53,982 nucleotides of DNA from an uncultured Methanosarcinales archaeon (GCA_964647565.1 CAZYIM010000004.1:44322-98303), one strand, 5' to 3'. Counted from the first letter of the stretch, positions 14,066 through 41,277 are shown. Notes: generated from the letters alone by a model not told the origin. Made by a program: numbers and translations.

Positions 14066-14066
14066 C

Positions 14067-15781: not shown

Positions 15782-15803
15782 AGGTTAAAAAGACACTGAA
15801 GAA

Positions 15804-16178: not shown

Positions 16179-16265
16179 ACAATAGTCTGTTCAACAGACA
16201 TATATTTAAATCTTTTTCATGACAAAATCACAAACAATATAAATAAGAATAAAATAGCTTATTAC

Positions 16266-17177
16266 ATGAAGAAAGGGGTGCAACTGGTTTTTCTTACTTC
16301 CTTGATAAGCGGGGTTTCTATATTTGTTAATGCATTTGGCGTTCAAAACATCCAACCCTATATATTTACCGGCTTGAAAAATATCATAGTTGCATTGCTT
16401 TTATTTTCGTTTATATTAATAGTAAAGGAATTTCAAGCAATAAAAAAACTGTCCTCATCTGAGTGGATCAAGTTGATATTAGTAGGCTTAATAGGAGGCA
16501 GTATTCCCTTCTTGCTTTTTTTTCAAGGTCTTAAGATTACAACTGCCGCTTCAGGCGCTTTTGTACATAAAACCATGATAATATGGGTTATCTTCCTGGC
16601 CATGATCTTTCTAAAAGAGAAAATCAATTTTAGATTGATAACAGGCGCGCTCATTATTCTTGTTGGTAGTTTCTTACTGCTGAGGCTAACTAACTTCGGA
16701 TTTAATCAGGGAACCATATTAATACTGATTGCCACTTTATTGTGGGCAGGAGAATTGATTTTGTCTAAGCATCTTCTTAAGAATCTGTCAGGTAATACTG
16801 TTGCATTTGGAAGGATGTTTTTTGGATCAATTTTCATTGTTGGATTCTTGACAATCTCAGGAAATCTCGGGTTAGTTCTTTCTTTGCCGGCAGCAAGTTG
16901 GCAATGGATATTATTGACATCACTGCTTCTGTTGGGGTATGTATATACTTTCTATAATGGCCTCAAACAGGTTAAGGTAAGTACTGCAGTGGCCGTCCTT
17001 TCATTGGGTTCAGTAATAACCACTATGCTTAACCTGGTATTCTTAGATAGATACTTGGTATTTTCTCAGGTAATCGGTTTAGTATTGATTATATTTGGGG
17101 TATTAGCATTTGTTGGTCTTAAAGAAACAATGAAGCTATTCAGTCAAGCTTCTCAACAGCATAAAAATGATGGATAG
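16266..17177 (+). CDS. EamA/DMT-family transporter
   Basis: About 10 TM helices in two repeats, with IFLKEKI motif; likely start ATG 16266. Confidence 0.88.
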   Translation: MKKGVQLVFLTSLISGVSIFVNAFGVQNIQPYIFTGLKNIIVALLLFSFILIVKEFQAIKKLSSSEWIKLILVGLIGGSIPFLLFFQGLKITTAASGAFVHKTMIIWVIFLAMIFLKEKINFRLITGALIILVGSFLLLRLTNFGFNQGTILILIATLLWAGELILSKHLLKNLSGNTVAFGRMFFGSIFIVGFLTISGNLGLVLSLPAASWQWILLTSLLLLGYVYTFYNGLKQVKVSTAVAVLSLGSVITTMLNLVFLDRYLVFSQVIGLVLIIFGVLAFVGLKETMKLFSQASQQHKNDG

Positions 17178-17625
17178 TTATCTTGTCACCTATTTTTGTA
17201 TCGGGCAATAGGTTTGCCAATACTATCCTTTCTTTATGATCATAAGTTACCTTATAGAATTCTTTTCCCTTTTTTTCGATTTTTTCCTTGATGGTAGCTT
17301 CGTGGACTTTACACATATCTTTGAAGATATCGCCCATACGTCCATACATACCGTCACCCATATCAATGTACTTGTTGTGTTCAATTCTGAAATACCTTTT
17401 CATCACGTCTCGATTCCAGCAATCCTTTCCCATATCTTTTGCAACTTGTTTTATGCGTCTGAATGCTGCGGGAAAAAGATGTTCAAGTCGTTCCCTGGAC
17501 ATGGGATGATCCTTATTGACACAGTTTTCCAATTCGTTGTATTCTTTGTCTGTGATTCTTTTTTGTTCTAGCAGAACATGTGCACATGCAAAAGAGTACC
17601 GTAGAAAATATCTTTCAACATTCAT
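17140..17625 (-). CDS. Hydrogenase-cluster-associated protein (DUF6390-like, HypC-like C-terminus)
   Basis: FLRYSF N-terminus and C-terminal IGDKITIHHFYAVEKL resembling a HypC OB fold; overlaps hypC. Confidence 0.6.
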   Translation of the reverse strand: MNVERYFLRYSFACAHVLLEQKRITDKEYNELENCVNKDHPMSRERLEHLFPAAFRRIKQVAKDMGKDCWNRDVMKRYFRIEHNKYIDMGDGMYGRMGDIFKDMCKVHEATIKEKIEKKGKEFYKVTYDHKERIVLANLLPDTKIGDKITIHHFYAVEKLD

Positions 17626-17830
17626 TTTCAGAGCTTCTTATTACTTCAAGCGCCTCCTTTGCATCTTTTTTTGGTATTATCTGTACAACAAAGCCTCCGC
17701 TGACAAGTACAAAGTCGCCGACTTGGCACTTGATTAGACTTATATTGGCCTGTCTTTTCTCTGCTTCATAATCAACAGTGGCAACATCTTCATCAATCTT
17801 TACAACTTTTCCAGGTATTGCAAGACACAT
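17615..17830 (-). CDS. hypC: Hydrogenase maturation chaperone HypC
   Basis: MCLAIPGKV N-terminus, VGDFVLV. Confidence 0.95.
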   Translation of the reverse strand: MCLAIPGKVVKIDEDVATVDYEAEKRQANISLIKCQVGDFVLVSGGFVVQIIPKKDAKEALEVIRSSENEC

Positions 17831-17832
17831 CC

Positions 17833-18156
17833 TTATTCTACTTCTACCTCAACAATCTTGATATCTTTGCCGTCGATGATTTTAGGCATCATATCACCAC
17901 ATTCGGGACATTTGAATATAAGATGATCATGACCTCTTTCCACAATTTCGGGTTCCCCTTCATAACCGCATTCACATTTGACAGTGGCCCTCTTTTGAGT
18001 TATCATGATATCCCAATCTGTCATTTGTTTTAGAACTTCTTCAGTTTCTTGGGCAGAAAGATGTGCAAGATCTCCTACTTCTAAAGTCATGCTCTTGACT
18101 TTACCGTGTTTCTCCGCTTCTTTGATTATAGCTTGGGCTATGGCTTGTTCGTGCAT
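17833..18156 (-). CDS. hypA: Hydrogenase nickel metallochaperone HypA
   Basis: MHE N-terminus, CECG and CPECG Zn sites. Confidence 0.92.
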   Translation of the reverse strand: MHEQAIAQAIIKEAEKHGKVKSMTLEVGDLAHLSAQETEEVLKQMTDWDIMITQKRATVKCECGYEGEPEIVERGHDHLIFKCPECGDMMPKIIDGKDIKIVEVEVE

Positions 18157-25202: not shown

Positions 25203-27893
25203 ATGAATGATAAAACACAGGTTGATTTTTCGAAGATAGCTGAGAAATGGCAGAAGAAATGGGCAGAGGCACGGATATTCAAGGTAAAAGAGGATCCCAA
25301 TAAAAAGAAATTCTACTGCCTTGAGATGTATCCTTATCCTTCGGCAACCCTGCACATGGGACATCTTAGGAACTATTCTATTGGAGATGCACTTGCAAGA
25401 TTTAAGCGTATGAATGGATTCAATGTCATCTATCCTATGGGCTATGATGCTTTTGGTTTGCCTGCAGAAAATGCTGCAATAAAACACAAGGTTGATCCTG
25501 AGAAATGGACATTATCTAACATTGAGAGTATAAAAGCCCAACAGCAAAAGATGGGTCTTTCCTATGACTGGTCAAGACAGATACAATCATGTGATGAAAA
25601 TTATTACAAATGGAATCAATGGATTTTTCTTAAGTTTCTTGAAAAAGGACTTGCCTACAAGAAACAATCTGCTGTGAACTGGTGTCCTGGGTGCCATACA
25701 GTTCTAGCAAATGAGCAGGTCATCGGCGGCCAATGTTGGAGATGCAAGGCTGATGTTGAGGAAAAGGCATTAGACCAATGGTTTTTCAAGATTACTCAAT
25801 ACGCAGAAGAATTGTTGCAGGATATTGATAAACTTGAGTATTGGCCTGAGAAAGTCAAAATCATGCAAAAGAACTGGATTGGCAAGAGTCATGGTGTTGA
25901 CTTGTTCTTTAAAGTCAAAGATAGTGATGTGGTCATACCTACTTTCACGACAAGGTGTGACACTATTTTCAGTGTGACTTTTGTAGTCATTGCGCCTGAG
26001 AATCCTTTGATAAAAGAGCTTGTGAAAGGTACCCAATATGAGGTGGAAGTAGAGAAACTCCTAAAAATTATTTCCAAACAGACAGTAATTGAGAGAACAA
26101 CAGAGTCTGGAAAGGATAAGTTAGGGTGTTTCCTTGGAAAATATGCTATCAATCCTGCCAATGGGGAAGAGATACCTATTTACATGGCTAATTTTGCATT
26201 GGCTGATTATGGTACAGGTTCAGTCATGGCAGATGCTCATGATCAAAGAGATTTTGAATTTGCAAAGAAATATGGCATACCTCTCAAATTTGTGATTTCT
26301 GATGATGGATCACCTATTAATCCTGATAAAGCATCAAGAGCGTTTCTTAATGATGGTATCTTGTATGATTCAGGAGAATTTTCAGGTATGCATAATCGTG
26401 ACGCACTTCCCGAGATGGCAGATTGGCTTGAGAAAACAGGTGGTGGCAAGAAGACCATAAACTATAAACTTAGGGATTGGTTGATATCCCGTCAGAGATA
26501 TTGGGGGACACCCATACCTGTAATCTACTGTGACGAATGTGGTGTTGTTCCTGTACCTTATGAAGATCTTCCTGTCAAACTTCCTAAGGATGCTAAATTT
26601 ACTGGCAAGGGAAATCCTATTCTTACATCAAAAAGTTTTATGGAATGCAAATGTCTTAAATGTGGCTCAGCGGCTAAACGAGAAAGCGATACAATGGACA
26701 CCTTTGTTGATAGCAGTTGGTATTTTTTGAGATATTGCAGTCCTAAATTTGACAAGCTGCCTTTTGATGGCTCTGCTGTTAAATATTGGATGGCTGTTGA
26801 TCAATATATAGGGGGTATAGAGCACGCAATTCTTCATTTGTTATATGCAAGATTCTTTACAAAGGCGCTTCGTGATCTTGGATTACATAAAGTGGACGAA
26901 CCGTTTGCCAGACTGCTTTGTCAGGGAATGGTCATTAAGGATGGCGCTAAGATGTCGAAATCATTAGGTAATGTTGTTGATCCTGCAGAGATAATGGATA
27001 AATACGGTGCAGATACTGCCCGTTTGTTCATACTGTTTGCTGCGCTTCCTGAAAAAGAACTTGATTGGTCTGATCAAGGCGTACAAGCTAGCTATAGATT
27101 CCTCAATAAGGTATATTCCCTTCTTGAAAAGGTCGAGTATAGATCTGAAGCCAGCAACAAGGACTCTTTTATTGAGAGTAAGATGCACAAGACCATAAGG
27201 ACCGTGTCTGATTACATTCAGGATTTCAAGTTCAGCCTTGCAATCGGTGCGATAATGGAGTTTGTGGGTGCCTTGCAGAACTACAGAAAAGAGCCCGTCC
27301 AAAAAAATATATATGCTGACGCAGTCAAGACAACACTGCTTTTACTAGGTCCTTTTGCACCTCATGTCTGCGAAGAGATGTGGGAAGCAACAGGTAATAA
27401 AAGTTACATCTCTGTTGCAGATTGGCCCAAATTCGATGCCAAAAAGATTGATGAGAAAGCAGAGGCTGCAGAAGAGATGGTTCATACACTTAAGTCTGAC
27501 ATCAATACAGTAAAGGAGCTTCTTAATTTTGACAGTTTAAAAAAGGTGCAGATCATTGTCAGCGCCTCCTGGAAGTTTGATTTCATGAGACTGTTCAAGG
27601 AAGAGCTTGCAAAGACAAGAGATGTTTCTGAGATTATCAAGGTTCTGATGCAGACAGATCTTAAGAGATACGGCCAAGAGATTTCAAAATTAGTGCCTAA
27701 ATTTGTGGCAGACCCAGGCAAGATATCTGACGTTGTCCTTGATCAGGACAGGGAGATCAAACAGATGGAAAGCCATATAGATTTCCTTAAGGAAGAGTTC
27801 TCAGCAGAGATTGAGGTCATAAAAGCAGAAGACTCCCAAGAGCAGAAAGCCAAAAGTGCCATGCCAGGCAAGCCAGCAATATTGGTGGAATGA
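25203..27893 (+). CDS. leuS: Leucine--tRNA ligase (bacterial-type core, archaeal-type C-terminal domain)
   Basis: [48 protein letters not shown]-terminal [11 protein letters not shown]. Confidence 0.97.
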
Positions 27894-28383: not shown

Positions 28384-28449
28384 TGTCATTCTCTCTCGAA
28401 AGATTTATATATCTTTATGTGTAAAATTCAGTTAAAAAAGAGGGTTTGT

Positions 28450-29151
28450 ATGAAAAAGAGTGAGAGGGAGTTAGTAGATTACATTAGAGACCAGCTTCAT
28501 AAAGGAATAAGTCGTAAACAGGTTCGTGCTGTTTTATTGAGGGTAGGACATAGTGTTGACTCTATCAATGTAGCTCTTGATAAGATACATGCCGCAGAAA
28601 AGAAAAACAATATTCTGTTTGGTGCTATTGCGGCTGTCGCTCTCTTAATGGTCTTGGGTTGGATATTCTTTGGTTTTATAGCTTCACAACCCACATATCT
28701 TTTAGAGAAACCCTCTTTAAGAGACAGAATAAATGCTTCTGGAGATGACGTGAATATTGATAAAGGCATGCAGGAAGCTGCTCTTGAATCTGGAGATGTT
28801 GAGCTTTGTGAGGGTGCGGGAACATATAGAGATAATTGTGTAATATCTGTGAGCGTCGATACTCAAGATGAGGATACATGTAAACTTTTAGAAGATAATA
28901 ATCTTCGGGCAACCTGTTACTACAAGATTGCTATTTCACTAAAAACTATCTCTCTATGTTCATTGAGCGGTAAATTTGAGGAGCAATGCATGAGTGAGAT
29001 CGCTTTGTTGACTTATAATCCTGAGATCTGCAGCAAGTTGACAGAAAAGAAGGATTCCTGTTTTAACATGCTTGCTTTGTTGACCAAGAACAAGGCCTTG
29101 TGTGAGCAGGCAGGACAATTTAAGCATAATTGCGTTAGGATGATAGGATGA
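28450..29151 (+). CDS. Single-TM protein: cytoplasmic helical domain plus extracellular Cys-rich helical repeats
   Basis: YIRDQLHKGISRKQVRAVLLRVGH, TM, repeated C-x(7-10)-C units; paralogous to 31316-31786. Confidence 0.75.
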   Translation: MKKSERELVDYIRDQLHKGISRKQVRAVLLRVGHSVDSINVALDKIHAAEKKNNILFGAIAAVALLMVLGWIFFGFIASQPTYLLEKPSLRDRINASGDDVNIDKGMQEAALESGDVELCEGAGTYRDNCVISVSVDTQDEDTCKLLEDNNLRATCYYKIAISLKTISLCSLSGKFEEQCMSEIALLTYNPEICSKLTEKKDSCFNMLALLTKNKALCEQAGQFKHNCVRMIG

Positions 29152-31304
29152 GAAGAATAGTTGTTTTGACAATTTGGGTTTTACTGTTTATAGTTCTTTG
29201 TCAATTTAGCTTGGGTTCTTATATGCTAAAGATTGACTCTCAAGGAAGACGAAATATTACTTTTGACTTTAGCCAAAAAACCATGTACAACTTCTCTTTT
29301 ACTTTCTATAACATCTCAAATTTTAGTACAGGTCCAATAATCCGATCTGAAATGTCTATTGCGCCAAGCCCTTATCCTGGAGGCCGTGAGAACTTTAGTT
29401 TAGTGATTGCTAGTGATATCTCTGCCAGCATGCTTGACTGCATCCTTGGTGCGGGGGATATGGACTGCATGAATCCAGGATCTTCACTGCCTTATGTTTA
29501 CGAGAACTGCCAGTTCCTTCCAGATGAGACTTCATGTGCAGGTATTGATCCGGATACAGGATATTGTTATAATTATACATCTGGTTTATTGCATTTTGAG
29601 TATAACTATTCGCCCATAGTCAGTTCTACATATTCAAACTGTGAGATCGCATCTGACTGTTCGATTCTTGGTAAGGTTCCAGTTGACTATCTTGGCAGCC
29701 ATTTCTATTCAGATGTTTGTCCTATAAACTATACTACCAAACCAGGCGAATTCTCACAACCCTATAATTGTGAGCTTATAGTTGATGACAATGTTGAGTG
29801 CACTGATTTAGGAAAATCAGAATATAACATCTATGAAAATAGGTCTGCATCAGGAATCTGGATTGAAGATGTACAGCAGAGTGTTTTTAGCAACTGGATT
29901 AAAGAATGTTGTATTGTAAATCAGAGTTGCTATTCCCAGTTAGATTGCTGCAATGAACAGTTTGTTTGCGAAGTGAACAGGTCTCAGGGCAGATATCTTC
30001 CAGGAGGCTGCACTTCGACAACCGGCAATCCACCAGCGTATCCCAACTGCAATACACAGACCTTTTGCGAAGCTAGACAAGATTCCTTTATCTTCAGTTG
30101 TGATTCTGTCAGAGATCTTACTGGGAAGGATATAGCCAAGAATTTGGTGGAAGATATATACAATGCATCCCTAGATCAGCACATTGGCATTTTGGAATTT
30201 AATGATGATGCAAATGTTCTCCAGGGCTTTGTTGAGCTGAACCGATCAACTAAAGTTACTAACTTGCATGATCTTATAGATACTCTTGCACCTGAGAAAA
30301 ACACATGCTTGTCGTGTGCAATAAGATCTGCACTAGATAATTTTGCAGCTCAACCGTCTGATCCCTGGGCCTGGCTGGATTGTGATTGTTCGGATTATTG
30401 GGTCGATGCTGGTTGCGATGGCGGATGTGGCAATGGCTACAGAAGAGAGAGATGCTCTATCTATGGATGCACTACGCAATACGATTGCATACAGGATGCT
30501 GCTTGTTTGGATTGTGATTGTACGGGTCAATGGACTGATGATGTGTGTGGAGATGGAACTAATGGTTGTGCTGTTGGAGAAAGGATCCAGAATTGTGACA
30601 TAAATGGCTGTACTTCTCAAACCCAGTGTGTGACAGATTCATCATGTGCACCTGCTTGTAGTTGCTCAGGATGGTCTGATCTTAGTTGTGGAGCTCATAA
30701 TACATGTCATGCTTCTGAGATGTACCAGACTAGAACCTGCAATCCTGCAGGATGTAATACTTCTGTAAGATGTCAGGATACCGCGAGTTGTGCAACACCT
30801 TGTGAGCAGAACTTGTTTACGTTTGATTATAGGTATCCTCAATCAGGTGGATATGGTCGTCAATATACATCTTTTAGAGATCCTTATCACAATATATTGG
30901 GCGGAGCTTGTATAATTCCTACAGGCATTGTTCCTCCAGGCGCCCCTGCTGGAACGGGAGGTTGTTGGGTTAATGATCACAAGTTTGTGTGGATCAAGAT
31001 ACATAATCCTCGTGGCCTGTATAATGCAGGATTCCAGTTTTATGGATATTTTGATGGAGAATCTGGTGAAGACCTTAGGATAATAGTTAACAATGATAGA
31101 TCATCAGCACCCTATAGAGATGCAAATCTCCCTATCCAAACAGGATGGAACTGGATAAATATGGGCAGATTCATGTTACAGCCAGGAGTAAACTATATTG
31201 GGATGACTAATCCTTTGTATGAGCAAGAAATGGCTGATGGGCAGGATGATGATTTGGACGGTACAAGTGTTCACTTTGGATATTTCATATTTACATGTAA
31301 TTAA
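29148..31304 (+). CDS. Secreted Cys-rich surface protein carrying the N-terminal part of a vWA domain
   Basis: Signal peptide, LVIASDISASM (MIDAS DxSxS), IGILEFND, NTCLSCAIRSALDNF, TSP1-like Cys repeats, C-terminal jelly-roll-like region. Confidence 0.75.
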   Translation: MRRIVVLTIWVLLFIVLCQFSLGSYMLKIDSQGRRNITFDFSQKTMYNFSFTFYNISNFSTGPIIRSEMSIAPSPYPGGRENFSLVIASDISASMLDCILGAGDMDCMNPGSSLPYVYENCQFLPDETSCAGIDPDTGYCYNYTSGLLHFEYNYSPIVSSTYSNCEIASDCSILGKVPVDYLGSHFYSDVCPINYTTKPGEFSQPYNCELIVDDNVECTDLGKSEYNIYENRSASGIWIEDVQQSVFSNWIKECCIVNQSCYSQLDCCNEQFVCEVNRSQGRYLPGGCTSTTGNPPAYPNCNTQTFCEARQDSFIFSCDSVRDLTGKDIAKNLVEDIYNASLDQHIGILEFNDDANVLQGFVELNRSTKVTNLHDLIDTLAPEKNTCLSCAIRSALDNFAAQPSDPWAWLDCDCSDYWVDAGCDGGCGNGYRRERCSIYGCTTQYDCIQDAACLDCDCTGQWTDDVCGDGTNGCAVGERIQNCDINGCTSQTQCVTDSSCAPACSCSGWSDLSCGAHNTCHASEMYQTRTCNPAGCNTSVRCQDTASCATPCEQNLFTFDYRYPQSGGYGRQYTSFRDPYHNILGGACIIPTGIVPPGAPAGTGGCWVNDHKFVWIKIHNPRGLYNAGFQFYGYFDGESGEDLRIIVNNDRSSAPYRDANLPIQTGWNWINMGRFMLQPGVNYIGMTNPLYEQEMADGQDDDLDGTSVHFGYFIFTCN

Positions 31305-31315
31305 TAGGAGTTAAA

Positions 31316-31786
31316 ATGCCAGAAGAAGCTTTAAACTATATCAAGCGGAACCTTAAGAAAGGTCACTCTGAAGCTAGGATAAAGAAGGCCTTGACCAAGG
31401 CAGGGCACTCAGATAAGGATATTCAATATTATTTTAAGAAGCATCGTTCTACAAAGAAGCATAAACAAGCAACCTTTGTTGTTTTCTGTACCATCCTCGC
31501 CATTATAGGTATTGTTTTGATAGCGATAGGTGTAAGCCTGGTTGTAAAGAGGGAAACTCGACAGAGCACGCCAGAACTGCCAGTGATTCAGGAAGATCCT
31601 CAGGCTAATGATTTGATCGGTGGGCAGTTGCAAGTTACAAAAGCACAGTATAATGATTATTATAATACCTTAAACACAGCAGCCATACAAGAAGACATAT
31701 CTCTCTGTAATCGACTTACCATAGAATCTCTACATGAGAAATGCTTGGAGCTTTATCCTATAAAATTAGCAGAAATAAAAAGATGA
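31316..31786 (+). CDS. Single-TM protein, paralog of 28450-29151
   Basis: YIKRNLKKGHSEARIKKALTKAGH, TM, one Cys pair; ATGA overlap with the giant gene. Confidence 0.75.
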   Translation: MPEEALNYIKRNLKKGHSEARIKKALTKAGHSDKDIQYYFKKHRSTKKHKQATFVVFCTILAIIGIVLIAIGVSLVVKRETRQSTPELPVIQEDPQANDLIGGQLQVTKAQYNDYYNTLNTAAIQEDISLCNRLTIESLHEKCLELYPIKLAEIKR

Positions 31787-34700
31787 ATAAGAATACATTA
31801 TACAAAAGGTTAACAACATTATTCGTAGTTAGCTTGCTTTTAATTGTATTGTCTTATTCTGCAACTGGTGAGTATTATCCTACTATGAACACTGATGATC
31901 CTGATTGCACTGATAATTATAATGATGAGGATTGGTTGTGGGCTTGCCAGACGTTCCGATCTGGATGTAATGCTGTTTATTGTACTGATGGTAGCTGTGA
32001 TTGTAACATGGGTAATAATTGTTGTTGCACCCAGGAGATATGTACTGATAAACTGGACAATGATTGTGATGGTGGCACAGACTACTGCGATAGTGGGTGC
32101 GGTTGTCCTTTTGGAAGCGAGTTTGGATGCACAGCTTGTGCTCGATGTACTGTTGACTCGGCAACAGTAGTAGTAGGTGAGCCCGTAACCTTCACTCTTT
32201 TCATAGGTTTTGGAACTGCACCCCCTAGTTCGAGAATACAATTTGGTGATGGCGCATCTTCTGTTGGCAGTTATGGGTCTGGTTCGACTGTTGTCCATTC
32301 ATATAATAACGTTGGAACATGGGATCCCTATTTTGAGCCTGTGGTCACTTTTCAAGAAACAGGCAGCTCAATAAGCTGTCCTACAATCACAGTCGAATCA
32401 CCTGATACAACACCTCCATCTACTCCGACTGCTGTGAGTCCTTCTGGATTTACCACAGACCATACTCCTGCCTTTGATTGGACTTCTTCAACTGACGCGA
32501 GTGGAATTGATTACTATCAGGTGAGGTGGCATTCTGGATATGGTTGTTCAAATCAGATTAGTTCTGTAAATACAGCTAGCACTACCACTAGCTATACAAT
32601 AAGTACATCAATGTCAGATGGTAGCTATTCTTTTGAAGCCAGAGCAAGAGATAATGGAGGTCTTTGGAGTAGCTTTAGCAGTTGCATGGACTTTACTATA
32701 ACTACTGTTCATGACTGCAACTGGTGTATGCAGTGGAACAATGATCCTTCGAACTGTCCGTCTGGTGCATCTGAGGATTGTTGGTATTATTATTCAGACA
32801 ATTACTGTCTTAAGAAAACAATGGTCTGGGACGGCGGGAGTTGTGTCAATGCACAATCCTGTACTGATGATGAAACTCCAAATAACTTATACAGCAGGGG
32901 TAGTGCAACTGGAAATCTTGAATATAGCTTATTATCTGGGACTTATCAGGACTCTTGTTCATCTAATGGCATTGGAAGCGAACCAGACATTATACAGGCT
33001 GATTGCACCTACAGATCAGGATCAGATATAACCTTTGTAACTTATACCAACAATGATAACTGTTTTAGTTCTATAAGTTGGGATGCAAATTATGTTTGGG
33101 CGCAAGGCGCTGTATGCAGAAGTGGTGCTTGTGCAAGTTGTTATCCATCTGATGGCAGCAAGACATGCTCTAATGATGGCAATTGTAATCTTATCTCAGA
33201 CAATGTGTGGTTTAGCTATACAGTGGATGCCATGCGACCTATGAGATGCGAACCAGAAATGCAGTGTACCAATGGCCGTTGTTGTGAACTTGGCGAGGTA
33301 TGGTCTGGTTCGTCTTGTGGAACTCCGCCTCCTCCGCCTCCTCCGCCTCCCGCTGCACCGACTGTTGATTCTTTGTATTGTCCTGGGTGTTTGCCTGGAC
33401 AGTGCGAGGTTAGATTCACTGACAATTCCAACAATGAAGATGGCTTTAGATTGTATGTATCCTCTGGTCAGAACTGGGGAGATAGTCCTAATTGGGGATC
33501 TGCAGTTTTAAGAACAATCCATTTCTCTATTGGGGGAACTGGATCAACAAGTACTATGACTGATACAAGTAATAATCAACTATATCCTACAAGCTATTGC
33601 TACTGGATAGCTGCTTACAATGCTGGCGGACAGTCAGGTGTTGTACCTGCTGGCTGTGACTTCTTTTTTAATAATGTTGCCAACCTTCGCAGCACCGGCC
33701 AATCGACTAATTCATTAAATTGGGCATGGGATGCAGTAAGCGGGGCAACAGATTATCGAGTATTAAATGATTGTTATCTTGGTTTAGGTCTTCACTCAGG
33801 AACAACATGGACCATGAACCAAAATTGGGAGTGGAACGGCTTTGGTTGGTGCGGGAATAATTTATTAAACTTGGCAGATGGAACATCTTATCAAATATCC
33901 TTGATTCCTGAACGATGGGAGAGTGGCAGCCTGGTCAATAGTGGTTGCATGAGCGGATTTGCAGGGGGTACCACTGACACAGTAATTCCTGTTCCTGTAA
34001 CATCACTTACCTGTCCTACTAGTTCAGATTGGAGTGACGCAGGCCATAATACAGCTACCTTCTTAGCTACCAACAGCCCAGATGCATTTGAATGCAGTAT
34101 CGACAGTAATCCCTGGGTAGCATGTTCAAGTCCCCAGGCATATCCCTCCCTTAATAGTCCTAGTAATCCATCAATGCATTCTTTGCGTGTCCGGGCACAT
34201 AATAGCCAAGGTTGGGGTAGTGCTGCCCAATGCAGCTGGTGGATTGGTATCAGTCCGAGTGTAAATTCAATGATTGTTGAAGGTACACCAAGATCAACTA
34301 TAGTTGATGGCTCAAATGTTATCCAGAGCTATGTACCTAATAGTGATGGGACAGTTGATATCTCCTGGACTGTTTCAGATAATTCTGGAGGCCAAAGTGC
34401 CAATTCAGGAGTCCAATATGTCAGAGTTCTTAGATATAATAACCAAGGGGGTTTTCCTGGATCGCCTGATTTGGCTACAGAAACTGAAGTAACTGTTGCT
34501 ACTGCCCCTGCCAGCACTTACACCTGGTCAAGTTCTTTTACAGATGGTTCTTTGGCTTCAGGCATCTACTGGTATTCTATTGAATTAAGAGACAATGCCG
34601 ATATTGATACAACTCCATCTGTAACCTTGGCACCTATACCTGTACAAGTGACTCTTCCACTACCTCCTGTGGCTGATTTCTCATATTGTAAGCTTAGCCA

Positions 34701-37700
34701 GACTGCGACAACAGTGGACATAGAGTTTTCTGATCTTTCGACGAATACACCTACTAGCTGGGATTGGGATTTTGGTGATGGTTCGTCGCATTCTTCTTTG
34801 CAGAATCCTGTCCACACATATAACACAGGATCAGGAGGGCAGCCTGCAAACTGGTGGAATGCTTTGTGGCTATCCAGGATTAATGTCACTTTTGATATGT
34901 CTGGAATTTCTGAGAATCTAAATAATGTGCCTGTATTGGTTGAGCTTGATTCAACAAGGGTGGAGTACTCAGAGATTCTTCCTAATGGTGATGATATACG
35001 TGTTATTGATGATGACGGCACCGTACTAGATTATGAGATTGAAAAGTTCGATTCATCTGGCACAACTGTTTTATGGGTGAGGATTCCTTCAATTACAGCT
35101 TCTGAATCAGAACATGTTATTTGGATCTATTATAACAATCCTGTTGCTGGGGCGGGAGAGGACGCTCAAAATGTGTGGACAAACAACTATGTCAATGTCT
35201 GGCATTTAGGGGGTACGGGTAATGATCAGGTTTGGGAATCAGTCAGCGGTAGTTACAGAGAACCCATAGATTCAACTTGGAACTGGAACTCAATAGATGG
35301 AAAGATTGGCAATGCTCTTGAGAGGCAGTTTGTCCAGAATAGTCCTTTTAGATGCATAACTTCTGATCAACAGTCACTAGACGACTATACAATACAGTTT
35401 TGGTACAAAGGTATACCTGATGGAAATCCTGGATTTCAATACAATGGTCTGATTGTCTGGGCTACTAATTGGCAAAGCTTAGTGATTGGATCTTGGCTAC
35501 CCAATGCAAACACGCCGCATTATTTGGATTTTGTGTCTTTTAATTTTATTGGAGGATATATTCAACGTGAATTCCTTACTCCTTCAAATATTATTGGAGA
35601 CCATACATGGGATATGATGACTGTTGTAATGGATTATCAAGGTGCTCCGCCCTATGAAGATGAGACTACGGTAAGAGTGCTCAGGAACGGGCAGGCTCTC
35701 ATTAATCAAAACTCAAATTTTTATTATGATAATGCAGGTTCTGATACTGGTTTTCTTAAGTTAGGAACTTGGGGGCAGTTAGATCAGATGCATTCTTTGA
35801 TAGATGAATTCAGGATATCTAGTGTTCAAAGAAGTGATAATTGGGCTGCATTCCAATATTGTGTTATGGAGGGCGGTTGTGTCAGTTATAGTCAGAATCC
35901 TGCAAAAGCACTAACCTTAATCGCGACTAATGTTGCTGGTTCAGATAGCGAAGTAAAGCCATTTGATCCAAGTTCGGTTCAATACTGTCCTGGAGCCCAA
36001 CCTCCTGTGGCTAATTTTTCATATTGTAAGCTTAATGAGACAGGTACGACTGTTGGTATTGAATTCACTGATCTTTCAACCAGTAATCCGACTTCTTGGG
36101 ATTGGGATTTTGGGGATGGCACACCTCATTCTTCCTTGCAGAATCCAGGACATACTTTTTCTGTTAGTAGCAGTAGTGCTTTTTTTGGTGATGGTTCTGA
36201 TGGTAGTGTTGTCATAAATGGGCCTGTTAATATCAATACTCAGACGATTACAGTTAGTAGATCTGAACCTGATGGTGTTGTTTCTGTTGTTTCTGATGTT
36301 GGTGTTAATTCTGTTACTGTTGCTGATGCTAGCGGGTTTTATACTGACGATATGGTTTTGCTTATGAATTTACAGGGTACTTCTGGGGATAGTGTTAATG
36401 TTGGTAATTATGAGTTTATTCCTGTGGCTTCTGTTGTTGGTAATGTAATTACTTTTACTGCAGATATTGCTCAGACTTATGGTAGTCCTGCTTCTCAGAA
36501 TATTATTCTACAAAGAGTACCGCAATATGATGATGTGACTGTTACTGGTAGTGGTGTTTTGACTGCTAATGGTTTTGATGGTTCTACTGGTGGTGTTGTT
36601 GCTTTCTTTGCTAGTGGCACTTTAAATGTGCAATCTGGTGGCAGGATTGATGTTAGTGCTAGAGGTTTCAGAGGTGGTAGTTCGTCTGGGCCTGAAGGTC
36701 ATACTGGCAGGACCACTACTGGTGGTGGTGCTGGCGGAAGCGGTAGTGCAGGTGAGCCTAGCGGTGCTGGTTATGGAGGTGATGGCATAGCAACAGGTGG
36801 TGGTGCTGGTGGCGCAGGCGGTATTTCTGGAAATGATTGTCCTCCGAACGGTCGTGTTAACCATGCTGGCGGAAATGGAGACTCTGGCGGTGGAGATGGT
36901 GGAGATGCTGGATGTCAGAATGATCCTGGTATTCCTCCAGCTACTCCTATTTATTGGAATGGCGGATCTGGTGTAAGTGGAAGTTCAACTTCCCCTGGAA
37001 GGGGAGGTGGAGGTGGCGGAGGTGGCCCTTCAGCAGGTGGTGCTGGCGGTGGTGCAGCCCCTTTTAATTCTGAAACCAATGATGCAACTGCTACTCTCTC
37101 AAGAATAATGCTAGGCGGTGGCTCCGCAGGTGGTGCTGGCGGTGGAGGCGCAGGAGGATGCGGCCGAAGTGGTACTAATGGAGGTGCAGGCTCAGGAGGA
37201 AGTGCAGTGGGTACCCCTGGAAGCGCAGGTAGCAATTCTCCTCAATGTAATGGTCCTTTTGCAACTGCGGGGACTGTTGGAGGTAGTGGAAATGCTGGCG
37301 GTGGAATGGTCATGATTATTGCGGATACTGTTAATATCGTAGGTACTGTAAACTCTAATGGTGGACAGGGTGGTGCTGGAGGTGACGGTGGTGACGGCGG
37401 CAGTGGTGGTGGCGGAGGCATTAACAATGGCGCTGGTGCTGGAGGTGGCGGCGGTGCTGATGGTGCAGCTGGCGGAAGTATTTATATTTATGGTGATACT
37501 GTTGCTTTAGGTTCAAATGATGTTATAGCTACGGGTGGTGCTGGTGGAAGTGGTGGAACTGGCGGTAGCGATGGCAATGGTTGGAATGCTGACAGCGGTA
37601 GCGGGGGGAATGGTGGTTCTGGTTCATCAGGATCTGTTGGTAAGATTGCTGTCAAGGGCACAACTTCTGTTACTGGTAACACTAATCCCGCTTATAATGT

Positions 37701-40700
37701 TGCTGCAGATCCTCATATAACAGATACTAGTGGAGGCTCAACTTTTAATGTTGTTTTGGATGCTACTAATATTGACGGTTTTGATAGCGAAACCAAGATC
37801 ATTAATCCATCCGCAGTTCAATACTGCCCTGGAGCAGCTCCTCCTATTGCCAACTATTCTTACTGCAAACTGAGTGAAACTTCCTCTACAGTGACTGTCA
37901 AGTTCAATGATACATCCACCAACAATCCTACTTCGTGGGACTGGGACTTCGGTGATGAATCTTCACATGGAACTGTGTCTGATCTTACTCATAAGTACGG
38001 TAGGTTTATGTTTGAATCCTGGCCAACCAGATTAAGGATAACTTATAACACTGCTTCTGCTAACGCATTGCAGGACGTTCCTGTCTTAGTTGAGTTGACA
38101 CCTGGACTTATCGATTATAATGATTTTAAATCTGGTGGCGCTGATATAAGATTCACAGATTCTGATGGTAATACAGAGCTTGATTATGAGATTGAACTTT
38201 GGAATCCTGGCGGTACATCTATCATCTGGGTTAAGATACCTTCAATAGCTGCTTCAGAGACAAGCCATTCAATATGGATGTATTACGGCAACAGCAATGC
38301 CAATCCTGGCGAGAATCCATCAGGTGTCTGGGATGATAATTTTGTTGGAGTCTATCATCTGGCAACTCCCGGAGCAATTGCTTATGACTCGAAGAATGGA
38401 TACAATGCCGATGTCCGTGCAGACAGGCCGAACAGATATCCTGGTATGTTCGGAACAGGTTATAGCTATCAGCTTAATTTAGATAGCTACGCAGCTAGTA
38501 GGGCTCCAAGAGGTGTTGGGACTATGGAGGCATGGATTAATAGGAAATGGGCCAATGATGATCCCAATGACTATGGAATTGCAGCTGTCTATTGGGCTAA
38601 TGATATGTGGAGGATGATGTGGAGAGGAAGCACAGCTAACTGTGGCAGGCATTTCTGGACAGAGGCCCGTTCAGCTGATTATGGAGTAGCTTGGTGTGAT
38701 GGCTGCACTGATCATGTCAATGTCTATCCAGAACAAGGAGTCTGGGGTTATCTTGTAGGAACTTGGGACAGCTCATATGTCAGGACATATGTTGATGGCC
38801 GTAGATGCGGATCTGTGGGAGGGATAGCTCCATGGACCCAAGCCCCTCTCCGATGGAGAATGGGCTGGCACAGCACTTCATCGGGTACTTTTGATGAGTT
38901 GAGAGTATCCAATATTGCTCGATCTCAAGACTGGATAGACTTCCAGCACTGTGTCATGACTAGTAGTTGTACAAGTTATGGATCTCCTGCAACAGTAACA
39001 GTGGATAATCAGTTTGATACTTCCTTGACTGCAACGAATCAAGGTGGCTTTGATACAGAACTAAAAACAATTGATTTGAATACAATACAAGATTGTCAGT
39101 TTGTTCAGCCTCCTGTTGCTAACTATACCTATTGCAAATTAAATGAGACGCCCATTAACATGACGATTAATTTTAAGGATATTTCAACCCACACATCCAC
39201 TGACTGGGATTGGGATTTTGGGGATGGAACAACAGATAACGGAACTCAGCATCCTGAGCATACATATGCAGATACAGGCAGTTATGACTCTGGTAAGATT
39301 GATGCTGCAATGGGAATGGATCCCAGCTTTGACGAGTGTTATATTATATTTAATCCCGCTTCTTGCACAGGCTTTAACTATACTGCTGTTTGCGAAGAGC
39401 CTTCATGTACCTATCCTCCTCTTCCCTGGAAAACATTATTTGCAGTTAGAACAGATGCTATTCCTACACACTGGCCTCTTCAAGGCTATAATACAACTAA
39501 TATATTTGGATACGGAGTTTTAATTGCTAAATTTTTCTGGTTTGAGCGCTATGTACCGCAGGATATTTCTCCTGGAGACTATTATGTTGAAATAAATGCC
39601 TTTGGAGAGATTGGTGAGGATGATGAGATCGTAACCATAAGCATAAATGCTGATCAGAACCAGACATCTGGAGATATATGGGATGCTCCTGACTGGGGTC
39701 ATTACTCCCAGAAATGCGTCTACCCGAACAAGTTCACCATAGTACCCGGTGATAAGATAAGGTTCTCTGCTAGGGAGAATAATGGCAGCATTCACTATGA
39801 CTGGTATAGGATAAAAGCCCGCATTGAGCCAGGAGATATAAGCTGTGCAACTGGAAATCCTCTTGTGCCAGGGCCGCTCAATGTAGAATATAATGTTACC
39901 TTGGCAGCCACTAATGCTGCGGGAGCAGATAGCGAAAGGAAGGAGATCAATCTGACACAGGTATCCTGGTGTACTGCACCTCCACAGACAGTTGCTGATT
40001 TCAGCTATTGTATGTTGGGAGAGACTGTTGATACTGTAACCATACAGTTTACTGATACTTCCACACAGAATCCCACTGGATGGTCATGGAACTTTGGTGA
40101 CAGCCACACCAGCATTTTGCAAAATCCTGTGAATGTGTTCTTAAGAGGCACGTATAATGTTAATCTCTCTGTGACTGCAGCATATTCAACTGACTCTGTA
40201 CTCAGGAATATAGCTGTGAATGATGCTCCGCTATGTTCAGATCCATCAAATCTGCCACCCAACAAAAAAATCCTGATAATTACAGACGGCACAACTAATA
40301 CTTTGATTGATGGGTCTCAAGATCAAGATCTGGCTGTCCAGGAAGCCCTGACTCATGCATGCAGCAGCAATGCCAATTCAGCCAAATCATTAGGTGTGCC
40401 AATATTTATAATAGGAATAGGTCCTGATCTGGCTAACCAGACACATCTAGAGCGTATCGCGAAATGTACAAATGGCGAATACTTCAGGGTGGACAGCAGT
40501 ATTACGATCCAACAAGTCAGGGATAAGATTTTCAACTGGCTCTTTGCTGAAGAATTCCCTACAACATCAATAGATGTGTCTGCGGACTCTGTAGGTGAAT
40601 GGGATATGAGCAGAATGCAGGTTGCAGATGTGAGATGGTCTGATGATATGTGTGCTGAAAATCTTACTTATTGCATAGGTAATGATCCTGGTTTTACATA

Positions 40701-41277
40701 TGTTGGCTGTAGTGACTTTAGAACAGGCCTAAATGCTTATATCAATGCTCAGTGCAATAATGTTGTAGGCTGCACTGTTGAGGTACCGATCAATATCAGC
40801 TCACCGACAAGGGGCAATCTAACCCTTTATGAATTCTCGATTGAACTGCCTTGTTGTCAGGAGAATGCCACTTGCCAAAGATTTGATGATACCCTAGAAG
40901 GGATTTATGGGACCTGCTGCCATGATGATACATATTATCAAGCAAATAACTATAGGATGTACTGTAGTATGGGCATAGATGATACAACCATATTAGGAAC
41001 CGAAGGCCACTGTTGTCGCTTAGGATTTTATTGGAACTCTACACTTAACAGGTGTATTAATGCTACAACCTGTTTTGACCTTCCATGTCCGCATCAATAC
41101 AACTCAATAGAGTATTGGAAAACTGGCAACTGTTTCATCGGCAACAGTTCAAGCTCACACATCAGACCTTTCGAAGGTTCTTGTTGTCCAAATTTCAGGT
41201 ATGGATATCCCTATATGGCCACTCCCATTGCAGATTTCAGATACTACTATGATCCTGTTCAGATTTATCTGAGCTAA
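31783..41277 (+). CDS. Giant (~3,160 aa) secreted multidomain surface protein: Cys-rich, FN3/Ig, 5 PKD-like, 2x DUF2341+LamG-like, Gly-rich, C-terminal part of a vWA domain
   Basis: Signal peptide from MNKNTL; WDWDFGDG repeats; DIR..D.DG..LDYEIE..W(V)(R/K)IP DUF2341 motifs; DEFRISS/DELRVSN LamG ends; ILIITDG...IFIIGIG vWA half. Confidence 0.9.
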   Translation: MNKNTLYKRLTTLFVVSLLLIVLSYSATGEYYPTMNTDDPDCTDNYNDEDWLWACQTFRSGCNAVYCTDGSCDCNMGNNCCCTQEICTDKLDNDCDGGTDYCDSGCGCPFGSEFGCTACARCTVDSATVVVGEPVTFTLFIGFGTAPPSSRIQFGDGASSVGSYGSGSTVVHSYNNVGTWDPYFEPVVTFQETGSSISCPTITVESPDTTPPSTPTAVSPSGFTTDHTPAFDWTSSTDASGIDYYQVRWHSGYGCSNQISSVNTASTTTSYTISTSMSDGSYSFEARARDNGGLWSSFSSCMDFTITTVHDCNWCMQWNNDPSNCPSGASEDCWYYYSDNYCLKKTMVWDGGSCVNAQSCTDDETPNNLYSRGSATGNLEYSLLSGTYQDSCSSNGIGSEPDIIQADCTYRSGSDITFVTYTNNDNCFSSISWDANYVWAQGAVCRSGACASCYPSDGSKTCSNDGNCNLISDNVWFSYTVDAMRPMRCEPEMQCTNGRCCELGEVWSGSSCGTPPPPPPPPPAAPTVDSLYCPGCLPGQCEVRFTDNSNNEDGFRLYVSSGQNWGDSPNWGSAVLRTIHFSIGGTGSTSTMTDTSNNQLYPTSYCYWIAAYNAGGQSGVVPAGCDFFFNNVANLRSTGQSTNSLNWAWDAVSGATDYRVLNDCYLGLGLHSGTTWTMNQNWEWNGFGWCGNNLLNLADGTSYQISLIPERWESGSLVNSGCMSGFAGGTTDTVIPVPVTSLTCPTSSDWSDAGHNTATFLATNSPDAFECSIDSNPWVACSSPQAYPSLNSPSNPSMHSLRVRAHNSQGWGSAAQCSWWIGISPSVNSMIVEGTPRSTIVDGSNVIQSYVPNSDGTVDISWTVSDNSGGQSANSGVQYVRVLRYNNQGGFPGSPDLATETEVTVATAPASTYTWSSSFTDGSLASGIYWYSIELRDNADIDTTPSVTLAPIPVQVTLPLPPVADFSYCKLSQTATTVDIEFSDLSTNTPTSWDWDFGDGSSHSSLQNPVHTYNTGSGGQPANWWNALWLSRINVTFDMSGISENLNNVPVLVELDSTRVEYSEILPNGDDIRVIDDDGTVLDYEIEKFDSSGTTVLWVRIPSITASESEHVIWIYYNNPVAGAGEDAQNVWTNNYVNVWHLGGTGNDQVWESVSGSYREPIDSTWNWNSIDGKIGNALERQFVQNSPFRCITSDQQSLDDYTIQFWYKGIPDGNPGFQYNGLIVWATNWQSLVIGSWLPNANTPHYLDFVSFNFIGGYIQREFLTPSNIIGDHTWDMMTVVMDYQGAPPYEDETTVRVLRNGQALINQNSNFYYDNAGSDTGFLKLGTWGQLDQMHSLIDEFRISSVQRSDNWAAFQYCVMEGGCVSYSQNPAKALTLIATNVAGSDSEVKPFDPSSVQYCPGAQPPVANFSYCKLNETGTTVGIEFTDLSTSNPTSWDWDFGDGTPHSSLQNPGHTFSVSSSSAFFGDGSDGSVVINGPVNINTQTITVSRSEPDGVVSVVSDVGVNSVTVADASGFYTDDMVLLMNLQGTSGDSVNVGNYEFIPVASVVGNVITFTADIAQTYGSPASQNIILQRVPQYDDVTVTGSGVLTANGFDGSTGGVVAFFASGTLNVQSGGRIDVSARGFRGGSSSGPEGHTGRTTTGGGAGGSGSAGEPSGAGYGGDGIATGGGAGGAGGISGNDCPPNGRVNHAGGNGDSGGGDGGDAGCQNDPGIPPATPIYWNGGSGVSGSSTSPGRGGGGGGGGPSAGGAGGGAAPFNSETNDATATLSRIMLGGGSAGGAGGGGAGGCGRSGTNGGAGSGGSAVGTPGSAGSNSPQCNGPFATAGTVGGSGNAGGGMVMIIADTVNIVGTVNSNGGQGGAGGDGGDGGSGGGGGINNGAGAGGGGGADGAAGGSIYIYGDTVALGSNDVIATGGAGGSGGTGGSDGNGWNADSGSGGNGGSGSSGSVGKIAVKGTTSVTGNTNPAYNVAADPHITDTSGGSTFNVVLDATNIDGFDSETKIINPSAVQYCPGAAPPIANYSYCKLSETSSTVTVKFNDTSTNNPTSWDWDFGDESSHGTVSDLTHKYGRFMFESWPTRLRITYNTASANALQDVPVLVELTPGLIDYNDFKSGGADIRFTDSDGNTELDYEIELWNPGGTSIIWVKIPSIAASETSHSIWMYYGNSNANPGENPSGVWDDNFVGVYHLATPGAIAYDSKNGYNADVRADRPNRYPGMFGTGYSYQLNLDSYAASRAPRGVGTMEAWINRKWANDDPNDYGIAAVYWANDMWRMMWRGSTANCGRHFWTEARSADYGVAWCDGCTDHVNVYPEQGVWGYLVGTWDSSYVRTYVDGRRCGSVGGIAPWTQAPLRWRMGWHSTSSGTFDELRVSNIARSQDWIDFQHCVMTSSCTSYGSPATVTVDNQFDTSLTATNQGGFDTELKTIDLNTIQDCQFVQPPVANYTYCKLNETPINMTINFKDISTHTSTDWDWDFGDGTTDNGTQHPEHTYADTGSYDSGKIDAAMGMDPSFDECYIIFNPASCTGFNYTAVCEEPSCTYPPLPWKTLFAVRTDAIPTHWPLQGYNTTNIFGYGVLIAKFFWFERYVPQDISPGDYYVEINAFGEIGEDDEIVTISINADQNQTSGDIWDAPDWGHYSQKCVYPNKFTIVPGDKIRFSARENNGSIHYDWYRIKARIEPGDISCATGNPLVPGPLNVEYNVTLAATNAAGADSERKEINLTQVSWCTAPPQTVADFSYCMLGETVDTVTIQFTDTSTQNPTGWSWNFGDSHTSILQNPVNVFLRGTYNVNLSVTAAYSTDSVLRNIAVNDAPLCSDPSNLPPNKKILIITDGTTNTLIDGSQDQDLAVQEALTHACSSNANSAKSLGVPIFIIGIGPDLANQTHLERIAKCTNGEYFRVDSSITIQQVRDKIFNWLFAEEFPTTSIDVSADSVGEWDMSRMQVADVRWSDDMCAENLTYCIGNDPGFTYVGCSDFRTGLNAYINAQCNNVVGCTVEVPINISSPTRGNLTLYEFSIELPCCQENATCQRFDDTLEGIYGTCCHDDTYYQANNYRMYCSMGIDDTTILGTEGHCCRLGFYWNSTLNRCINATTCFDLPCPHQYNSIEYWKTGNCFIGNSSSSHIRPFEGSCCPNFRYGYPYMATPIADFRYYYDPVQIYLS

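Follow-up and report, generated by a model that had tools for sequence, protein, structure and literature searches.

Complementary parts of one vWA domain are encoded by two nearby genes of an uncultured Methanosarcinales archaeon

Several pilus adhesins with a von Willebrand factor A (vWA) domain carry extra pieces grafted into the loops of that domain. Described vWA adhesins and modular pilins include the minor pilin PilB (Streptococcus sanguinis; 7b7p, 7ba2), SpaC (Lactobacillus rhamnosus; 6m3y), Mfa5 with its vWF domain (Porphyromonas gingivalis; 6tnj) and PitA (7w6b), in which the vWA domain is made by one polypeptide. Here we describe a stretch of 53,982 nucleotides from an uncultured Methanosarcinales archaeon (GCA_964647565.1 CAZYIM010000004.1:44322-98303, the whole of which is hereafter termed the window), where the first part of a vWA fold is found in a 718-aa protein, P0001, and the remainder in a giant protein, P0002, encoded downstream. 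As in the pilus adhesins, the family concerned consists of surface proteins with a metal ion-dependent adhesion site (MIDAS) module, and Foldseek places its vWA domain, modelled on an intact paralog of the same genome, among those of PilB, SpaC, Mfa5 and PitA (E 1e-8 to 1.5e-7), the identity of the model to solved vWA domains being only 12-18%. Unlike in those proteins, the domain is divided between two genes, and unlike the modular pilins neither P0001 nor P0002 has a pilin-type N-terminus, the G-x-F-F-x-I-D-A motif of the relatives and of the own paralog being absent from both.

Judged from sequence, each of the two proteins holds one vWA half and one half only, and the two segments are very probably true halves of one ancestral vWA domain. 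An earlier note on this DNA had described one vWA domain divided between two genes; its coordinates and frames (the open reading frames (ORFs), 29415, 30357-30364 and 40237-40244) were borne out, and complementary Pfam parts together with family profiles upheld the division itself. The features of the two genes are the following, with residues of P0002 counted from the ATG at 31741.

29148-31304, + strand: P0001, 718 aa, with an N-terminal hydrophobic signal or anchor, the vWA N-half, three Cys repeats and a C-terminal domain
29391-29429, + strand: P0001 residues 82-94, beta1 and the MIDAS motif DxSxS, NFSLVIASDISAS (D90, S92, S94), from sequence and alignment to beta1 of the relatives
29433-30104, + strand: P0001 residues 96-319, Cys-rich insert in the beta1-alpha1 loop, from motif distances
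30105-30356, + strand: P0001 residues 320-403, alpha1-beta2-beta3-alpha2-alpha3, from family profile, Pfam, secondary structure and alignment
30357-30365, + strand: junction 1, Ser-Asp-Pro (TCT GAT CCC), S404-D405-P406, the last residues attributable to the alpha3-beta4 loop
30366-30815, + strand: P0001 residues 407-556, three Cys repeats of ~48 aa each
30870-31301, + strand: P0001 residues 575-718, C-terminal domain, from its position in homologs
31741-41277, + strand: P0002, 3178 aa from the first ATG, from the ORF call
39991-40230, + strand: P0002 residues 2751-2830, fifth PKD domain, uninterrupted, ending just before junction 2
40237-40245, + strand: junction 2, Ser-Asp-Pro (TCA GAT CCA), S2833-D2834-P2835
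40246-40545, + strand: P0002 residues 2836-2935, beta4-alpha4-beta5-alpha5-beta6-alpha6, from family profile, Pfam and alignment
40546-41274, + strand: P0002 residues 2936-3178, post-vWA domain and Cys-rich C-terminal tail, from the match to the relative G299

With P0002 2825-3178 as the query, 401 genomes of the order were searched in six frames and 44 of them matched, including the host itself and the unpublished G207, which enters no other result. The relatives examined, designated by genome, are the ten best distinct genomes, namely G299, G278, G118 and the pilin-like group of G055, G230, G354, G181, G288, G066 and G164, with G196 (locus L019, a 355-aa ORF at a contig end) left out. Three family profiles (beta1, alpha1-alpha3 and beta4-alpha6) were built from these ten relatives, using no window sequence, and were run against all 6146 six-frame ORFs of at least 80 aa in the host genome. 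The alpha1-alpha3 profile matched P0001 at residues 317-397 (E 4.6e-8) and the beta4-alpha6 profile matched P0002 at residues 2841-2946 (E 1.2e-13). No trace of the missing half was detected in either protein, since the beta4-alpha6 profile reached -0.3 bits (E 370) on P0001 and the N-half profiles 1.0 and 1.2 bits (E 170 and 93) on P0002, where a beta1-type DxSxS motif was not found either. A complete vWA in each protein, the result that the earlier note had regarded as fatal to a division, was thus not seen by profile. Pfam returned VWA profile positions 21-96 of 174 (E 0.23) on P0001 327-403, with VWA_2 at E 0.04, and positions 104-173 of 174 (E 0.001) on P0002 2841-2928. Each match covers half a profile: P0001 scored 12.1 and 15.0 bits (PF00092 and PF13519) versus curated cut-offs of 23.8 and 27, and P0002 scored 19.7 bits in one scan and 24.4 bits, above the cut-off, in another. 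The beta1 profile, which is short, was not significant on P0001 when used alone (E 1.4), so that the beta1 assignment rests on the motif NFSLVIASDISASMLDC aligned with YEVVLVTDLSWSMDDC of G278-like members.

Neither P0001 (beta1-alpha3) nor P0002 (beta4-alpha6) therefore holds the complete six-stranded alpha/beta fold in one polypeptide, and the MIDAS set DxSxS...T...D is complete only when both proteins are combined. The codon of D90, within DISAS, lies at 29415; S92 and S94 follow in the same motif, T386 stands inside the family motif TCLSCAI of P0001, and the MIDAS Asp is D2849 of P0002, in ILIITDG. The Cys-rich beta1-alpha1 insert of P0001 is ~205 aa longer than the corresponding loop of compact relatives, and the Cys-rich stretch before alpha1 in G299 is partly similar to it (phmmer match, P0001 273-396). 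In the C-half, C2870 (in AC before beta5) and C2908 (in A.C before beta6) are both kept or both absent across the family, the pair being absent together in G118 and in the host's own paralog in the family alignment. This joint loss suggests a single disulfide within the half; a disulfide clasp between the two chains had been considered and was dropped on the same observation.

The relatives are large surface proteins of 1000-2500 aa. Common to them are the motifs DxSxSM, TC..C(A/G)(I/V), (I/V)(L/V)MTDG, G(I/V)..(F/Y)..G(F/I)G and L..IA.C..G.Y, a post-vWA domain, and inserts that are nested in two loops, beta1-alpha1 and alpha3-beta4; both window halves belong to this family by motifs and post-vWA domain, as recognized by the profiles described above. 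A single ORF holds beta1 through alpha6 in all eight relatives with the 5' end on the contig (8/8). Contig starts truncate G299 and G164, and in G299 Pfam VWA positions 21-173 form a single stretch (E 3.7e-13). Homologs with a contiguous vWA, for which the earlier note had proposed a search, were thus found in G299, in other relatives and in the host genome itself. This intact paralog (L007:373-3084, minus strand, contig 2; 903-905 aa) has a contiguous alpha3-beta4 loop and matches the alpha1-alpha3 and beta4-alpha6 profiles at E 6e-10 and E 3.6e-18, respectively. It carries a Cys-rich insert of ~45 aa after beta4, and Pfam detects only VWA profile positions 56-116 in it. Its N-terminus is of the pilin-like type K/R-G-x-F-F-x-I-D-A, which we take to be an archaeal class III signal and which is also present in 7/10 relatives (G055, G230, G354, G181, G288, G066 and G118). 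An AF2 model of its vWA domain, obtained with a 10-row alignment (mean predicted local distance difference test (pLDDT) 66.9, predicted template modelling score 0.70), showed the order beta1, alpha1, beta2, beta3, alpha2, alpha3, beta4, alpha4, beta5, alpha5, beta6, alpha6, and Foldseek returned at least 399 solved vWA matches at E <= 0.001, including ITIH1, SpaC, Mfa5, PitA and PilB.

Motif spacing in the family was highly variable at two places. From DxSxSM to TC..C, compact members have a spacing of 82-98 residues, P0001 one of 296, G118 one of 614 and G278 one of 1894. From TC..C to ..MTDG, the spacing is 24-25 residues for G299, G278 and G118, and the own paralog has a similar value. Seven relatives have inserts in the alpha3-beta4 loop, of 159-173 aa (G230, G055, G354, G181 and G164), 396 aa (G288) and 616 aa (G066). 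Since this loop is either short or filled with a large nested insert in the relatives, the chain can leave the fold and return there, and the break between P0001 and P0002, as placed by the alignment, falls in a loop that is an insertion hot-spot of the family. In G278 (L023:1945-9992), within an unbroken ORF of 2527 aa, beta1 (VLVTDLSWSM) lies near residue 92 and alpha1 near residue 1935, so that the loop between them accommodates ~1800 extra residues. Ahead of it, a separate pilin-like ORF of 155 aa overlaps the start of this vWA protein by ATGA, a different fission in the same family.

Searches with the window proteins themselves retrieved little. A word-index search with P0001 gave 0/2936 candidates at E <= 0.001, and one with P0002 2825-3178, among shorter proteins, only a 161-aa fragment of P0002 itself. 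Exhaustive phmmer with P0001 gave 54 matches, namely one fragment of itself, 52 limited to the Cys repeats or the C-terminal domain, and one vWA fragment, the 80-aa P0053, which matches P0001 326-396 and is the sole VWA among the 31 of 53 non-self matches scanned with Pfam; apart from P0053, the N-terminal 410 residues of P0001 had no relative in the large protein collections. Of 60 relatives compared with P0001 one matched, in the Cys repeat only; neither half had a significant match in sequence searches of the PDB, and in the ESM Atlas vWA clusters appeared at 0.82, under the level that counts. An AF2 model of P0001 without alignment was uninformative (pLDDT 32.6). BLASTP between P0001 and P0002 revealed no significant similarity.

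As expected of a split protein, P0001 and P0002 match consecutive, non-overlapping parts of a single-ORF homolog. The best match of both halves is G299, at E 7.7e-4 for the N-half, where the match extends into the Cys-rich insert, and at E 9e-16 for the C-half; the latter match spans P0002 2840-3080, through the post-vWA domain (E 1.5e-13 in one search, 9e-16 in the second). Both halves share with G299 and G278 the form TC(L/I)(S/A)CA rather than TC.CCG, a 5-6-residue NPASAK-like insertion before beta5 and a short (F/Y)PT-type exit from the domain. Moreover, the N-terminal layout of P0001 is that of G278 (signal, ~70 residues, beta1 ending ...SM.DC), and the alpha3-beta4 loop of G278, reading ...EPSDNIVLMTDG / ...LLEPFALTEPSDNIVLMTDG, resembles the hypothetical join of P0001 and P0002 at Ser-Asp-Pro. 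Pairwise identities of the halves to the family are only 16-31% over ~80-115 columns, so that this congruence in subgroup is suggestive and no proof. There was no sign of decay in either half, the leave-one-out profile scores of the window halves (37.5 and 57.1 bits) standing beside those of divergent intact members (G299, 42.5/77.8; own paralog, 43.5/72.3; G278, 56.0/50.7 bits).

At the two breakpoints, TCTGATCC (30357-30364) and TCAGATCC (40237-40244) both begin on a codon boundary, so that a hypothetical join would be in frame. The Ser-Asp-Pro microhomology pointed out in the earlier note is indeed in frame, and the tripeptide occurs once in each protein, precisely at the junction; as DNA the microhomology is weak, amounting to 7/8 bases with 5 exact in a row and nothing beyond the shared amino acids. 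The chance of a shared tripeptide in random pairs of windows is 0.5% for windows of 5 x 11 aa, 3% for 15 x 15 and 10% for 25 x 25. On their non-vWA sides both junctions coincide with module borders: the fifth PKD domain of P0002 ends a few residues before Ser-Asp-Pro, and the first Cys repeat of P0001 begins a few residues after it.

The two genes belong to a group of four, in which each of them is preceded by a small gene. The remaining members of the group and its flanks are listed below.

25203-27893: leucyl-tRNA synthetase gene, 5' flank of the four-gene group
28417-29151, + strand: P0003, 244-aa small membrane protein, head of cassette 1, from the ORF call
31316-31786, + strand: P0004, 156-aa small membrane protein, head of cassette 2, paralog of P0003
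41342-42157: metallo-beta-lactamase-fold gene, 3' flank of the four-gene group

P0003, P0001, P0004 and P0002 are co-oriented and tightly packed between the leucyl-tRNA synthetase and metallo-beta-lactamase-fold genes. The stop of P0003 overlaps the start of P0001 as ATGA, the stop of P0001 is followed by an 11-nt spacer before P0004, and the second in-frame ATG of P0002 (31783) overlaps the stop of P0004 again as ATGA, so that P0002 is possibly 3164 aa long. From the ATGA overlaps and the 11-nt gap we infer one tight operon. P0003 and P0004 are paralogous across their first 70 residues (BLASTP E 4e-6), from which the locus appears as two parallel cassettes, each with a small membrane protein and a large protein with an N-terminal hydrophobic segment. 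The common N-terminal domain of P0003 and P0004 has ~55 aa and is followed by one membrane helix; no Pfam family matched either protein at a useful level. The N-termini of P0001, MRRIVVLTIWVLLFIV, and of P0002 (from M15), MNKNTLYKRLTTLFVV, contain hydrophobic segments which, together with the many cysteines, fit export. Besides its signal or anchor, P0002 contains PKD domains in which DUF2341, LamG-like and Gly-rich inserts are nested, together with the vWA C-half, the post-vWA domain and the Cys-rich tail. Between 34600 and 40000 (P0002 ~965-2740) four of the five PKD domains are interrupted, in a Russian-doll architecture where the core runs up to the H-T-Y strand, 200-530 residues of a DUF2341 plus LamG-like region or of a Gly-rich beta-helix-like region follow, and a closing strand, such as LTLIATNVAGSDSE at residue 1391 or SLTATNQGGFDTE at 2429, completes the domain.

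As for the origin of the split, a rearrangement in general is well supported, and the explanation that we favour is that two paralogous cassettes of two genes each recombined and so divided the domain, in a loop that tolerates insertions. Each of the two cassettes would have had a small membrane protein, an ATGA overlap and a large exported protein, and one reciprocal crossover at or near the Ser-Asp-Pro codons would have swapped their 3' parts. Gene A would have been a compact vWA gene of the G299/G278 type, equal to P0001 1-406 plus P0002 2836-3178, and gene B a giant PKD gene, equal to P0002 1-2835 plus P0001 407-718. The simplest route would be the integration of a circle carrying P0004 and gene B into gene A at a short shared sequence, which would account for the present gene order and for the shared codons at both joints. 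Such an exchange is favoured by the uniqueness of Ser-Asp-Pro to each junction, by the paralogy of P0003 and P0004, and by the C-terminal domain of P0001, which is terminal in its homologs. These are beta-helix, cohesin or BACON surface proteins with the domain always at the extreme C-terminus (P0010, 747-885 of 886; P0015, 613-731 of 732; P0017, 794-911 of 916). The duplication with reciprocal loss that the earlier note had also put forward needs two independent breaks in the same loop and is less economical than one reciprocal exchange.

It is less likely, though conceivable, that an insertion of thousands of residues nested in the alpha3-beta4 loop of a single ancestral gene was later cut by a copy of the cassette head (small membrane protein and signal peptide) landing inside it. 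Nested inserts are indeed a habit of these proteins, as indicated by the 159-616 aa inserts in the same loop of seven relatives, by the ~1800 extra residues that G278 accommodates in its beta1-alpha1 loop within an unbroken 2527-aa ORF, and by the interrupted PKD domains of P0002 (four of five), and the paralogy of P0004 to P0003 would provide the cassette head. However, in G299 and G278, the nearest relatives of both halves, nothing interrupts the loop, which is short, a profile made from the loop inserts of the relatives found nothing in P0001, in P0002 or in the rest of the genome (best E 0.79), the last domain of P0001 is a C-terminal one in its homologs, and Ser-Asp-Pro on both sides of the break is not predicted. 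This alternative concerns the origin only and is compatible with assembly of the halves in trans. The state of the DNA itself was judged on contigs of public sequencing runs. The region is present in seven runs of 2 studies, some of them perhaps source samples of the genome, and contigs of four runs, at a depth of only ~3-5 and with rare variants dropped, were compared. Among the contigs listed, junction 1 is bridged by record 9 of X2 (29922-30444) and junction 2 by record 7 of X1 and record 15 of X2 (39698-40283) and by record 24 of X5 (40086-40615); the contigs of the four runs report no joints, indels or variant letters at the locus, at this depth. Parts of the stretch are without cover in X5 and X6, and no inference was drawn from them. 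The earlier note had advised a check for assembly integrity and for a deletion joining 30364 to 40245, and no such deletion was present in these contigs. A phase variation in which a 9880-bp segment excises between the Ser-Asp-Pro sites, as the earlier note had proposed, would join the genes in frame, with a G299-like loop, into a 749-aa adhesin with a contiguous vWA; we hold it to be highly improbable, as no excision joint occurs in the contigs of the four low-depth runs, the flanking repeat amounts to the same 7/8 bases with no longer direct repeats, and no recombinase, integrase or transposase was found among the 41 window ORFs scanned. Equally improbable is that the contig is chimeric at one junction or that the vWA part-matches are coincidental. 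The genome is a metagenome-assembled draft in 86 contigs and Pfam scores are sub-threshold, but contigs built separately from runs of two studies, the source sample perhaps among them, span both junctions and show no differences, no direct repeat of at least 20 nt links the two sites, which makes repeat-driven misassembly unlikely, and the family profiles are significant (E 4.6e-8 and 1.2e-13) with both halves pointing to the same subgroup.

To evaluate whether the two halves fit together, P0001 72-410 and P0002 2828-2945 were co-folded with Mg by ESMFold2, along with three controls. The interaction score ipSAE (interaction prediction score from aligned errors) was 0.85/0.85/0.86, versus 0.00 for the best control, and the vWA sheet was rebuilt in the model. 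In calibration, performed with Mg absent, the mark was reached by 51/78 solved complexes and by 2/108 mismatched pairs. The runs agreed in at least 76% of contacts, with a partner pLDDT of at least 74. The tightest contacts joined P0001 85-90 (beta1) to P0002 2843-2848 (beta4), the latter pairing with P0001 82-90, and likewise P0001 385-396 (alpha3) to P0002 2869-2873 and 2888. The strand order of a vWA sheet is 3-2-1-4-5-6, and contacts between beta1 and beta4 are those of expected neighbours. What the model shows is that both sequences can be accommodated in a single vWA fold; it is no demonstration of binding.

On this model, the exported halves quite possibly reassemble and work in trans. 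Both large proteins would be exported via their N-terminal hydrophobic segments, with the operon-like packing providing for coordinated synthesis; outside the cell, beta1 of P0001 would dock on beta4 of P0002, restoring the six-stranded sheet and a MIDAS made of D90, S92, S94 and T386 of one protein and D2849 of the other. The reassembled domain would act as a metal-dependent adhesin and as a non-covalent clasp between the 718-aa protein and the distal end of the giant one. We tentatively propose that this is a natural split vWA, whose shared MIDAS might serve both as an adhesin and as a metal-dependent clasp by which a module of 718 aa hangs from the tip of a surface fibre of 3164 aa; within the same tentative proposal, it would stand at the end of a family habit in which loops of the vWA domain serve as sockets that take up very large nested inserts. 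The clasp in trans that the earlier note had suggested thus gains the co-fold (0.85 versus 0.00), a support from modelling in which memory of the fold may play a part.

Several observations weigh against this proposal. The N-half chain of the co-fold has a pLDDT of 46, and Mg was included, unlike in the calibration; the pass may reflect memory of the vWA fold, since a resemblance to solved structures tends to carry halves of split genes past the mark. In the first Pfam scan, both halves scored below the curated cut-offs. The crossover is itself a reconstruction, in which Ser-Asp-Pro is possibly a matter of chance (up to 10% with loose windows). None of the relatives examined (0/10) is split at the alpha3-beta4 loop, and the collections searched contain no close relative of either protein. 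Two Sec-exported, unfolded half-domains would need to meet outside the cell, and, given the disulfide suggested within the C-half, nothing points to a covalent link between them. A recent rearrangement, finally, would leave halves that look intact and have no function. This last point leads to the main rival, possible if doubtful, according to which the same rearrangement took place and the halves never meet, being recent leftovers before decay, while P0001 and P0002 act through their other modules (Cys repeats, PKD, DUF2341 and C-terminal domains). The uniqueness of the split, the lack of close homologs found, a co-fold pass that is possibly fold memory, and the intact family member of the genome, which could supply the vWA function, all agree with such relics. 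On the other hand, neither half has lost a MIDAS residue or a family motif, and their profile scores equal those of divergent intact members; unpaired half-fold stretches of ~100 and 400 aa in exported proteins should be counterselected; and the 343 codons after junction 2 are open and homologous to G299 through the post-vWA domain.

The host genome, a metagenome-assembled draft of 86 contigs and 2.68 Mb, 87% complete, stands alone in its family, and most genomes of its order measure 0.6-2 Mb; the window has genes of archaeal type for the ribosome and RNA polymerase, which fit an archaeon. The Cys repeat of P0001, with the pattern C.C..W...CG..C....M.QTRTCNP.GC....C..D..C, occurs in tandem across dozens of otherwise unrelated surface proteins, in the context of Hint, Big_7, PKD, LamG, dockerin and GDSL lipase domains, and no Pfam model for it was among the matches. 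A DsbA/thioredoxin-like protein is encoded 18 kb upstream (9721-10656, minus strand) and may be relevant to disulfide formation in the Cys-rich exported proteins. At 12007-18156 lies a NiFe-hydrogenase-type cluster (large and small subunits, FAD/NAD and 4Fe-4S subunits, a HycI-like protease and HypA), notable in a small-genome archaeon. Within P0002, the segment 36700-37600 is Gly-rich coding sequence with many short direct repeats of GGT/GGC type (local G+C 0.47, GC skew 0.28), and loose ends of foreign contigs pile up there in X5 and X6. No tRNA genes were found in the window, and a scan for sigma-70 promoters and terminators, a model unsuited to an archaeon, gave counts equal to those of shuffled sequences.

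The anatomy of the locus is clear and unusual, yet the case is drawn from one draft genome and from a model. Should the halves reassemble, the pair would illustrate, in nature, the complementation of a fold outside the cell and a route to heteromeric adhesins in archaea that live by attaching to other cells, and protein engineering would have in it a ready-made split vWA. Even if they are relics, the alpha3-beta4 and beta1-alpha1 loops of the vWA domain tolerate inserts of hundreds to ~1800 residues, which is useful for annotation, as vWA domains of this kind escape Pfam or are recognized by it in part. No description of a split vWA was found in a limited search of the literature, which does not imply its absence from print.

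Gene fission usually falls between domains, while P0001 and P0002 are cut through the centre of the beta-sheet of one fold. Split protein genes are known in Nanoarchaeum equitans and other reduced archaea, where the products presumably reassemble; they are genes of cytoplasmic enzymes cut between domains. One abstract in the literature mentions "several fragmented genes" (PMC3491384). The present pair resembles the splits of the Nanoarchaeum equitans type in coming from a small-genome archaeon and in having one protein unit laid out as two ORFs, and differs from them in that the cut runs through the middle of a beta-sheet, the proteins are predicted to be exported, and the halves are fused to unrelated modules. 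In integrins a nested vWA arrangement is also found, with the vWA as the guest and not the host. Flavodoxin-like and Rossmann-like folds have been subjected to fragment complementation in the laboratory, where engineered halves rebuild a three-layer alpha/beta structure from two half-sheets. Unlike in integrins, the vWA domain described here is the host of the inserts; unlike in engineered complementation, its halves come from a natural gene pair; and unlike in every family member examined, where the whole domain is in one ORF, the domain of the window is split.

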